Below, one piece after another: positions 63,773 to 63,999 of a stretch of 64,000 bases of DNA. The DNA lies in NCBI GenBank assembly GCA_002337005.1, contig DDFD01000015.1:86755-150754 (forward strand), written 5' to 3'. This DNA comes from Flavobacteriales bacterium UBA1937. GTDB lineage: Bacteria; Bacteroidota; Bacteroidia; Flavobacteriales; Weeksellaceae. The notes beneath the pieces are model-generated. The model searched no databases. It was not told the DNA's origin and was given only the letters and a program-made list of their open reading frames with translations. Positions within the stretch are counted from its first letter, which is position 1. Each line of letters starts with the position of its first letter. Both the position numbers and the translations under genes were made by a program.

Positions 63773-63999
63773 AGTAGTCCTATATAGACTATTTCATAAT
63801 TTATTTATTTGCAATTCAATAAAATAAAATGAATATCAATATAATACCGCCATCTATATTGTTTTTTTTATTAAAAAATCGCAATATTTTACAATTATGA
63901 ACAACATTACAATTCACTGAAAAACAAATAGTTATTTACCCAATGTTAATATTTTTTTTTATATCTTTGTCGAGTAATAGTAGTCTATATAGGACTACT
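63773..63999. promoter_or_regulatory. 227-bp segment bounded by perfect 19-bp inverted repeats, with an internal TAtcTTTG box: candidate invertible promoter (alternative: MITE)
   Basis: IRL AGTAGTCCTATATAGACTA at 63773-63791. IRR TAGTCTATATAGGACTACT at 63981-63999 is its exact reverse complement. -7 box at 63962-63969 on the + strand. IRL lies 14 nt from the start codon at 63758. Confidence 0.55.

Follow-up and report, generated by a model that had tools for sequence, protein, structure and literature searches.

The right-hand end of a 64,000-nucleotide (nt) stretch of DNA from Flavobacteriales bacterium UBA1937 (contig DDFD01000015.1; the whole stretch is referred to here as the window) raises the question of whether the intergenic region upstream of a cassette of predicted surface-protein genes contains a promoter that can be turned around. 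The initial annotation had proposed that inverted repeats in this region enclose an invertible promoter, which faces away from the cassette and would drive it through a ~40-nt leader once flipped. That proposal is supported, as two sister lineages carry the segment in the flipped orientation. We consider it very likely that the element is an invertible promoter (inverton) operated by an adjacent tyrosine recombinase and that the orientation found in the window leaves the cassette without a promoter.

Inversion of the segment between sister lineages

Two 19-nt arms, at positions 63773-63791 (AGTAGTCCTATATAGACTA) and 63981-63999 (TAGTCTATATAGGACTACT), lie 189 nt apart and are 100% reverse-complementary, and a repeat check thus agreed with the initial annotation, which had called them exact reverse complements. 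Its placement of the left repeat 14 nt upstream of the start codon at 63758 likewise agrees with the coordinates of the 205-amino-acid (aa) open reading frame (ORF) that begins there and is the first of a closely spaced series, with ORFs of 322, 329, and 95 aa behind it. Only these two copies of the 19-mer occur in the window when up to 3 mismatches are allowed (0.02 expected), and a search of 185,579 species genomes returned one additional inverted pair. The segment between the arms is short, noncoding, and enclosed by a single inverted-repeat pair, as is an inverton. Each arm is part of a 21-bp near-palindrome made up of a 7-bp half-site, an asymmetric 7-bp core, and a second 7-bp half-site, a layout characteristic of the core sites of tyrosine recombinases, loxP and FRT among them. 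The window itself ends inside the AT-rich intergenic region; the overall GC content of the DNA of this bacterium is ~32%.

To compare this region among relatives, loci with close homologs of the neighboring recombinase (described below) were collected, and metagenomes were scanned for the 19-mer. Four loci (L001, L003, L004, and L026) are 100% identical to the window over the whole switch and extend beyond the window end; a fifth (L002) is identical over the part that it covers and ends within the segment. In lineages C and D (13 contigs; Table 1), the flanks on the cassette and recombinase sides and both 19-mers agree with the window, and the interior is reverse-complemented: it is 74 to 78% identical to the window interior when flipped, versus 51 to 53% when unflipped. 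Reverse-complementing the C and D loci makes them colinear with the window from repeat to repeat, and it is then the flanks that exchange sides (alignment A1). The junction reads ...TTATGAAG-AGTAGTCCTATATAGACTA-TTTCATAATT... in the window orientation and would read ...TTATGAAG-AGTAGTCCTATATAGACTA-CTATTACTCGACAAAGATA... in the flipped orientation. Lineages A, A', and B carry the segment one way and lineages C and D carry it the other way, with the flanks unchanged; the segment has been inverted exactly between lineages, which is site-specific inversion on evolutionary timescales.

The sites themselves indicate where the exchange takes place. The deviant half-site AATAGTC occupies the inner position of a site that is on the left in lineage A but on the right in lineages C and D. 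Since the inner half-sites move with the segment, the crossover lies within the core. The core sequences vary by lineage but are always the same on both arms (eight lineages), while the half-sites are constant; the core change in lineage B, for example, is matched on both arms (CTGTATA/TATACAG). Lineage-specific cores that are matched on both arms are what a requirement for identical cores in strand exchange would be expected to produce.

The -7 box of the segment, TATCTTTG, is the sole TAnnTTTG on either strand between 63759 and 64000, and the segment contains no CAAAnnTA. A motif scan bore out the initial annotation in this respect, including the location of the box 11 nt from the right repeat. 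The position that had been predicted for the box after inversion (63803-63810 on the minus strand) is arithmetically correct and matches what the flipped relatives show: lineages C and D have the box in reverse complement (CAAAGATA or CAAAGGTA) at a distance of 11 nt from the left repeat, directed into a 206-aa gene. The box had also been described as firing rightwards, possibly toward something to the right. It does point out of the window, and we can refine the target to the recombinase gene itself. No other canonical box faces the cassette across the 289-nt intergenic region, and for this reason the cassette would be OFF in the window orientation.

Table 1 Features of the window and lineages in which the switch was compared
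Feature or lineage	Position in window, or loci	Strand	Size	Description
First cassette gene	63141..63758	-	205 aa	N-terminal hydrophobic segment, no known domain; directly downstream of switch
Second cassette gene	62160..63128	-	322 aa	Signal peptide; paralogous to third gene
Third cassette gene	61166..62155	-	329 aa	Signal peptide, poorly modelled stalk, C-terminal TNF/C1q-like jelly-roll domain
ORF	60724..61011	-	95 aa	154 nt downstream of third gene; co-located in L001, L026, and L027; no family match
Cassette-proximal recombination site	63773..63793		21 bp	AGTAGTC-CTATATA-GACTATT; inner half is AATAGTC on the opposite strand; contains left 19-mer
Recombinase-proximal recombination site	63979..63999		21 bp	AGTAGTC-TATATAG-GACTACT; contains right 19-mer (63981-63999)
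Invertible segment interior	63792..63980		189 nt	19% GC; defined by exact reverse-complementation in lineages C and D
Promoter-distal conserved block	63792..63830			TTTCATAATTTATTTATTTGCAATTCAATAAAATAAAAT; near-invariant in lineages A to D (alignment A1), mid-segment diverged
-7 box	63962..63969	+		TATCTTTG (TAnnTTTG, Bacteroidota type); 11 nt from right arm; points toward recombinase gene
Lineage A	Window, L001-L004, L026		6 assemblies	Recombinase intact; box toward recombinase
Lineage A'	L028-L034		7 contigs	Interior 98% identical; recombinase frameshifted; box toward recombinase
Lineage B	L005, L035, L036 (partial)		3 contigs	Recombinase 91-97% identical; box toward recombinase
Lineage C	L006, L007		2 contigs	Recombinase 86% identical; box toward cassette
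Lineage D	L008-L017, L025		11 contigs	Recombinase 83% identical, frameshifted; box toward cassette
C. koreense-like	L037, L038		Interior 177 nt	Core CTTGTTA; TAATTTTG toward recombinase
P0005	L041-L046		Interior 187 nt	Core CTAACAA; TACATTTG 8 nt from site, toward cargo
P0010	L049-L052		Interior 175 nt	Core CTACTTA; TATTTTTG 8 nt from site, toward recombinase
P0008	L047, L048		Interior 185 nt	Core CTGCCTA; only near-match TAACTTTA
Recombinase 48% identical	L023		Interior 188 nt (184 nt between 21-bp sites)	Core CTATATA; TATTTTTG 10 nt from repeat (8 nt from site), toward recombinase
Empedobacter tilapiae	L018		Interior 155 nt	19-mers identical to those of the window; no box near site
Epilithonimonas hungarica	L039, L040			Core TAAGCAG; single site without partner

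Two irregularities were seen in the sites of other lineages. In lineage B, the outer half-sites of the two arms differ by an A/G substitution whose sides are exchanged between two loci: L005 (positions 3-230) has AATAGTC on the left and GACTACT on the right, and L035 (2802-3027) has AGTAGTC on the left and GACTATT on the right, with the interior in the same orientation in both. Such a swap is unexpected if the outer half-sites remain with the flanks. In L049 to L052 (e.g., L049:2705-2951), a 17-nt sequence plus half-site, GTATTTTTGTTATCAAT-AGTAGTC, which has the -7 box inside it, is present as a direct repeat, with one copy in the cassette-side flank outside the left site and the other at the right end of the interior. 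If this segment were flipped, the left site would fall within a perfect 24-7-24 palindrome, and a simple core crossover does not account for the direct repeat. A weaker version is present in L035 (2790-3030).

The adjacent recombinase gene and the proposed switch

Loci that extend to the right of the window contain a 412-aa ORF that follows the right arm after a 48-nt spacer, its ATG beginning 49 nt beyond the repeat, on the window plus strand and divergent from the cassette. The initial annotation had stated that no recombinase gene is visible in the window; this holds for the window, which stops at the right repeat, and the tyrosine recombinase gene lies immediately beyond its end. The exact 412-aa protein is encoded on the same 166,115-nt NCBI contig (whole-genome shotgun prefix APMI01) as the window proteins. 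It has the domains Arm-DNA-bind_5, Phage_int_SAM_5, and Phage_integrase, and its homologs are found in Chryseobacterium, Epilithonimonas, Bergeyella, and Empedobacter. The methionine aminopeptidase of the window's organism, a member of Weeksellaceae, clusters with Soonwooa and Avrilella. Residues R251, K278/K281, H352, R355, H377, and Y386 are invariant in an 18-member alignment of this family, and they align with the R, K, HxxR, and H..Y motifs of HP1 integrase in a weak profile match (E = 0.6) that was used solely for the correspondence of catalytic motifs. A phmmer search of the recombinase against PDB gave no match. We also considered a serine-invertase switch of the Hin/Gin/Mpi type and rejected it, as the adjacent enzyme is a tyrosine recombinase and gene calling in L001 and L026 yielded no gene of the resolvase type.

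In the mechanism that we propose, the recombinase would bind two inverted 21-bp sites (AGTAGTC, 7-bp core, GACTAyT), and strand exchange within the identical 7-bp cores would flip the 189-bp segment. A single Bacteroidota-type promoter would be located at one end of the segment, with its -7 box 11 nt from the repeat. In the window orientation, this promoter would be directed to the recombinase side, leaving the cassette without a canonical promoter (OFF). After inversion, the box would lie 11 nt from the left repeat and would give a leader of ~38 nt into the cassette operon, which encodes the 205-aa membrane-anchored protein and the TNF/C1q-like proteins (ON).

Two lineages have lost the intact recombinase gene. 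In lineage D, one nucleotide is deleted from an A-run at about codon 345, which puts H352, R355, H377, and Y386 out of frame (e.g., L008:4001-5245); the truncated product of 352 aa is present in 135 collection blocks, and the frameshift is therefore not a sequencing error. In lineage A', a 1-nt deletion is found at about codon 22 (e.g., L028:1474-2712). The box is directed toward the cassette in all 11 contigs of lineage D and toward the recombinase in all 7 contigs of lineage A'. These two independent frameshift lineages look like natural locked-ON and locked-OFF strains, respectively, and the combination of a frameshift with a single fixed orientation fits a flip that depends on the recombinase gene, although the relationship is correlative.

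The recombinase-side site has further properties. In RNA, it would form an 8-bp hairpin (-10.3 kcal/mol in a local fold) followed by seven U residues; the corresponding T-run on the plus strand begins at 63999 and continues past the window end. A T-run (T5 to T8) is found after the recombinase-side site in 11 of 12 lineages; on the cassette side, the site has the same hairpin but no T-run. Judging from these sequence features, the recombinase-side site may double as an orientation-specific terminator. Ten nucleotides beyond this site, the fixed spacer has a conserved TAAATTnG box, from which the recombinase gene itself is probably transcribed. The promoter-distal block of ~40 nt, at the opposite end of the segment, is a candidate arm-type or accessory site that may be bound by the N-terminal domain of the recombinase, and a CAATTCAATA-like motif from this block was also found in L037 and L049. 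That the recombinase-side site is a terminator that insulates the recombinase and that, together with the arm-type block, it marks an undescribed, self-insulating, Weeksellaceae-wide inverton family with hypervariable TNF/C1q-like surface-protein cargo and naturally locked strains is a broader idea that we put forward tentatively and regard as doubtful.

The surroundings of the recombinase gene gave some additional observations. The spacer to the right of the window (L001:1389-1436, minus strand; window equivalent, ~64000-64047) contains a conserved element, TTAAATTnGyTGrnAATTAAC, and in the window lineage it contains a 14-bp perfect palindrome that ends at the recombinase start codon (ATTTGTTGATAATT-9 nt-AATTATCAACAAAT). 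An RNA hairpin in the 5' untranslated region of the recombinase gene is not claimed, as covariation was weak (two of seven pairs compensatory) and the folding energy was only -1.14 kcal/mol. In L026 (3788-8108), the switch recombinase gene is followed by genes for proteins of 187 and 397 aa, then by a second recombinase paralog (412 aa), and then by CusB-type resistance-nodulation-division efflux genes. At this position, lineages B and D have Haem_bd, DCC1-like, DUF4290, and murA genes instead, and the recombinase-187-397-recombinase module is also found in a C. koreense-like contig (L037:5242-8313). The module may be an inserted element or a second switch.

Competing explanations and known systems

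Several observations weigh against a promoter switch that is in regular use. None of the lineages is polymorphic for orientation among ~50 loci (contigs plus metagenome and genome scans), and a single orientation was found in lineages with an intact recombinase (A, 6/6; P0005, 6/6; P0010, 4/4; and C, 2/2); switching may therefore be rare, strongly biased, or condition dependent. Assemblies give only the majority orientation, so minor subpopulations would not show. A neighbor-joining tree of the proteins had suggested several flips (at least two) within the close clade, but a bootstrapped nucleotide tree gave the ladder (D,(C,(B,(A,A')))) with 72.5% support, so that one flip suffices there, and we dropped the claim of several flips. 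It is from adjacency and co-conservation only that we infer catalysis of the flip by the recombinase. As to the promoter, TAnnTTTG occurs at chance density in AT-rich DNA (12 found versus 13.6 expected in L001), and no canonical box is present near a site in the P0008 and E. tilapiae lineages. A TTG is located 19 nt upstream of the box (-33) in L005 and in lineages C and D, the spacing of the Bacteroidota -33/-7 arrangement; the window has CCC/CCA there (alignment A1), and its promoter may be weaker, its strength being uncertain. A sigma-70 promoter scan, which returned as many matches as shuffled sequence did, is uninformative for Bacteroidota. Since the box is uninformative by itself, the real argument for a promoter is its positional conservation across lineages. 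An outward-facing -7 box stands 8 to 12 nt from one site in the A-to-D clade, L023, L037, L049, and L042, whose interiors are unalignable, and in five of seven nonalignable lineages an outward box lies 6 to 14 nt from a site (post hoc chance, ~1e-8 to 1e-7). On this evidence, TATCTTTG is presumably the active promoter of the segment.

Formally, the inversion could be a fossil or very rare event: the segment would have flipped once or a few times in evolution, by the action of this recombinase or an ancestor, and would be effectively static in the window strain, with no working switch. The occurrence of one orientation per lineage in all assemblies, the sufficiency of one flip within the close clade, the loss of the recombinase by frameshift in two lineages, and the missing -33 TTG of the window promoter would all be accommodated. 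However, in the window lineage the 412-aa recombinase is intact and has kept every catalytic residue, both 19-mers are perfect, and the matching of cores on both arms despite lineage-specific changes argues for continuing selection or homogenization. Moreover, the orientations need about two to three flips when the whole family is placed on the tree, and a minor subpopulation would be invisible in assemblies that report the majority orientation. We therefore think it unlikely that the segment is static. It is also rather improbable, in our estimation, that inversion mainly controls the recombinase or another element of the segment, for example, by orientation-dependent autoregulation, and not the ON/OFF state of the cassette. 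The box in the window does point at the recombinase gene, ~80 nt upstream of its ATG, and conservation is higher in the ~40-nt block at the opposite segment end than around the promoter. Yet the terminator-like hairpin formed by the recombinase-side site and its T-run is directly downstream of the box, and the fixed spacer has a conserved box of its own, while the left repeat is only 14 nt from the cassette ATG, with no other canonical promoter, and variable cargo beside the switch is a theme that is kept across lineages.

Perfect inverted termini around a short, AT-rich, noncoding segment could also be those of a miniature inverted-repeat transposable element (MITE) or the ends of an integrated mobile element served by the integrase, and the annotation of the neighboring gene as "phage integrase" and the second integrase paralog nearby in the window lineage (L026) could be read in the same way. 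We give this explanation practically no weight. The 19-mer forms a single pair in the window and only one more as a pair, in E. tilapiae, at an equivalent position beside a homologous recombinase, which is not the behavior of a MITE; the matches to it in metagenomes come either from this locus again or from isolated chance occurrences. No target-site duplication is present (the flanks read GAAG and TTTT), the place of the element between recombinase and cassette is syntenic across at least eight lineages, with conserved housekeeping genes beyond, and the segment was found inverted in place, not transposed. Attachment sites of integrative elements are direct, not inverted, and attL/attR sites of a phage or an integrative and conjugative element were rejected for the related reasons that the repeats are inverted, that the 189 nt between them contain no gene, and that they occupy the same position in all lineages. 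Finally, each arm is itself a hairpin, and the right arm with its T-run resembles an intrinsic terminator, as would be the case for a static cis-regulatory structure (an operator pair, a long-range stem, or terminators) that never recombines. Such a structure leaves unexplained why the interior is exactly reverse-complemented between flanks that sister lineages share and why the inner half-sites move with the interior, and it is very improbable. For the invertible promoter operated by the adjacent recombinase, which we favor, analogy with known switches suggests that rapid, reversible phase variation may occur within populations.

The closest parallels are the invertons of Bacteroidales, in which the invertase gene adjoins an invertible promoter with a highly variable region downstream, as at capsule and resistance loci (bioRxiv 10.1101/2021.04.26.441444). 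The locus described here is like these tyrosine-recombinase invertons of Bacteroides and Bacteroidales in belonging to the same phylum, in having the recombinase directly beside a short segment flanked by inverted repeats, in carrying a putative promoter of the Bacteroidota -7 type on that segment, and in having variable, surface-related cargo immediately downstream. It differs in its host (Flavobacteriia, Weeksellaceae) and in its cargo, which is not of the capsule or SusC/D type but consists of a 205-aa membrane protein with TNF/C1q-like, PTL_trimer, type IX secretion system (T9SS)-tail, cadherin, or GEVED proteins. The Tsr recombinases of B. fragilis control outer-surface proteins (Weinacht et al. 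2004, as cited in PMC11602134); the likeness drawn here to the Tsr type is one of mechanism and layout.

Other systems share parts of this design. In Cre/loxP and Flp/FRT, two inverted half-sites flank an asymmetric spacer of 6 to 8 bp, which sets polarity and must be identical in the partners. The sites described here resemble these in having conserved half-sites with matched, lineage-specific cores, but their recognizable half-sites are ~7 bp, compared to the 13-bp half-sites of loxP and FRT, and, since the recombinase, unlike Cre and Flp, has an extra arm-binding domain, accessory arm-type sites may be required. In E. coli, the tyrosine recombinases FimB and FimE invert the promoter segment fimS for type 1 fimbriae; fimS is 314 bp with 9-bp repeats, uses two recombinases of different directionality, and needs integration host factor and Lrp. 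Like fimS, the present segment is a few hundred base pairs long and lies beside its recombinase gene; it would likewise be a promoter segment that a tyrosine recombinase inverts to control a surface structure, and in both systems, recombinase expression may be coupled to orientation. By contrast with fimS, there is a single recombinase here, which bears an arm-type DNA-binding domain at its N terminus; the sites are 21-bp palindromes, and the segment measures 189 bp. Hin/hix of Salmonella and Mpi of B. fragilis (polysaccharide promoters) are serine-invertase ON/OFF switches of surface antigens. They have in common with this locus an invertible promoter between inverted repeats, but the enzyme here has the R-K-H-R-H-Y set of a tyrosine recombinase, and the 7-7-7 site is unlike the hix or Mpi consensus (for serine-invertase switches, see also reference 26 of PMC11602134).

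The mechanism is thus known (a Bacteroidales-type tyrosine-recombinase inverton) and not new, and the locus is a well-validated case of it, with locked variants in nature and a clear signature in its sites. Searches of full-text literature found no paper joining invertible promoters or invertons with Flavobacteri* or Chryseobacterium, although the supplements of large surveys may include them, and, for the genera of Weeksellaceae that were searched, none on DNA inversion or phase variation; the main text of the DeepInverton survey does not mention Weeksellaceae-group taxa. The locus extends recombinase-adjacent invertible promoters, known in detail from Bacteroidales of the gut, to the family Weeksellaceae (the group of Chryseobacterium, Empedobacter, and Epilithonimonas), members of which are encountered in food, in water, and in opportunistic infections. 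Inverted AGTAGTC-N7-GACTAyT pairs beside a 412-aa recombinase provide a motif for a family-wide search, and the lineages with frameshifted recombinases and opposite fixed orientations provide natural "locked" controls for cassette function. The hypervariable secreted cargo (TNF/C1q-like, T9SS, cadherin-like, and GEVED proteins) represents plausible adhesins or determinants of phage or host interaction. An inverton prediction made from sequence alone was in this case validated from public assemblies alone, via the flipped allele in sister lineages.

Distant lineages and cassette products

Seven further lineages share a common design of conserved AGTAGTC/GACTAyT half-sites, a 7-bp core, an AT-rich interior of 155 to 189 nt, and variable secreted-protein cargo. 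Among them, an outward-facing -7 box 8 to 12 nt from one site is usual but not universal; in L037 and L038, the box (TAATTTTG) is 12 nt from the 17-bp repeat arm and 10 nt from the 21-bp site. Exactly two sites are present per locus in the 4- to 14-kb loci examined, with the exception of E. hungarica, which has one. A shufflon or other multisite inversion was rejected, as there is no third site in those loci. In E. hungarica, the single site, AGTAGTC-TAAGCAG-GACTACT (L039:3880-4003 and L040), is located between the recombinase gene and a 210-aa cassette gene, and neither a partner site (within ~4 kb) nor a promoter segment is present; the switch either has degenerated and lost its invertible segment or has its partner site far away.

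The only other inverted pair of the 19-mer in the species genomes belongs to Empedobacter tilapiae MRS2 (L018:3136-3328; NZ_SRPE01000004.1), where it lies beside a homologous recombinase that is 54 to 59% identical despite the identical 19-mers. The cargo differs there and includes an HU-DNA_bdg/DUF4469 gene that is apparently split into two overlapping ORFs. Single matches to the 19-mer in L019 to L022 and L024 were rejected as chance matches in unrelated DNA (46 to 49% GC) or in a repeated AT-rich element. Those in L021, L022, and L024 (JAABUY, JAABUX, and JAABUV contigs) are single copies inside a longer palindrome, CTAGTAGTCTATATAGGACTACTAT, of the repeated AT-rich element, have no recombinase context, and were judged to be due to chance.

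With regard to the cassette itself, the 205-aa protein is kept next to the switch across lineages (80% identity in lineage D and 31% in the P0005 lineage). Its homologs are found only in close relatives, all without an assigned name, and it matched no Pfam or NCBIfam family. Searches of Pfam and NCBIfam with the cassette proteins gave no match even at permissive thresholds, and only structure prediction was informative. In the AlphaFold2 model of the 329-aa protein, a C-terminal beta-sandwich has predicted local distance difference test (pLDDT) values of 85 to 93 over about residues 130 to 210, and Foldseek matched the model to TNF-family trimers, the fiber tip of Bacillus F-BclA, and a phage receptor-binding protein (E values of about 1e-5). 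Some homologs of this protein are named "C1q domain-containing." The 322-aa protein is 37% identical to the 329-aa family (alignment A2) and shares with it the N-terminal motif VGINxxxPSAxLDI. The 95-aa ORF may be the last gene of the cassette. The downstream cargo varies by strain and includes PTL_trimer, cadherin/Big_9, and GEVED proteins; one cargo type consists of an 862-aa fn3/PTL_trimer protein and a partner with a T9SS Por_Secre_tail domain. These features support the view that the cassette products are secreted, probably trimeric surface or adhesin-like proteins. The initial annotation's term "surface-protein" cassette is retained to the extent that the products are predicted to be secreted and TNF/C1q-like, a surface location being suggested by the signal peptide and fold only. 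On the minus strand, ~36 nt into the 205-aa gene from its 5' end, a 12-pair hairpin (AGATTTTTCTGCAATTGCAGAAGAGTCT, window positions 63695-63722) was scored as "terminator-like," and the sequence underlying it is conserved in lineage D.

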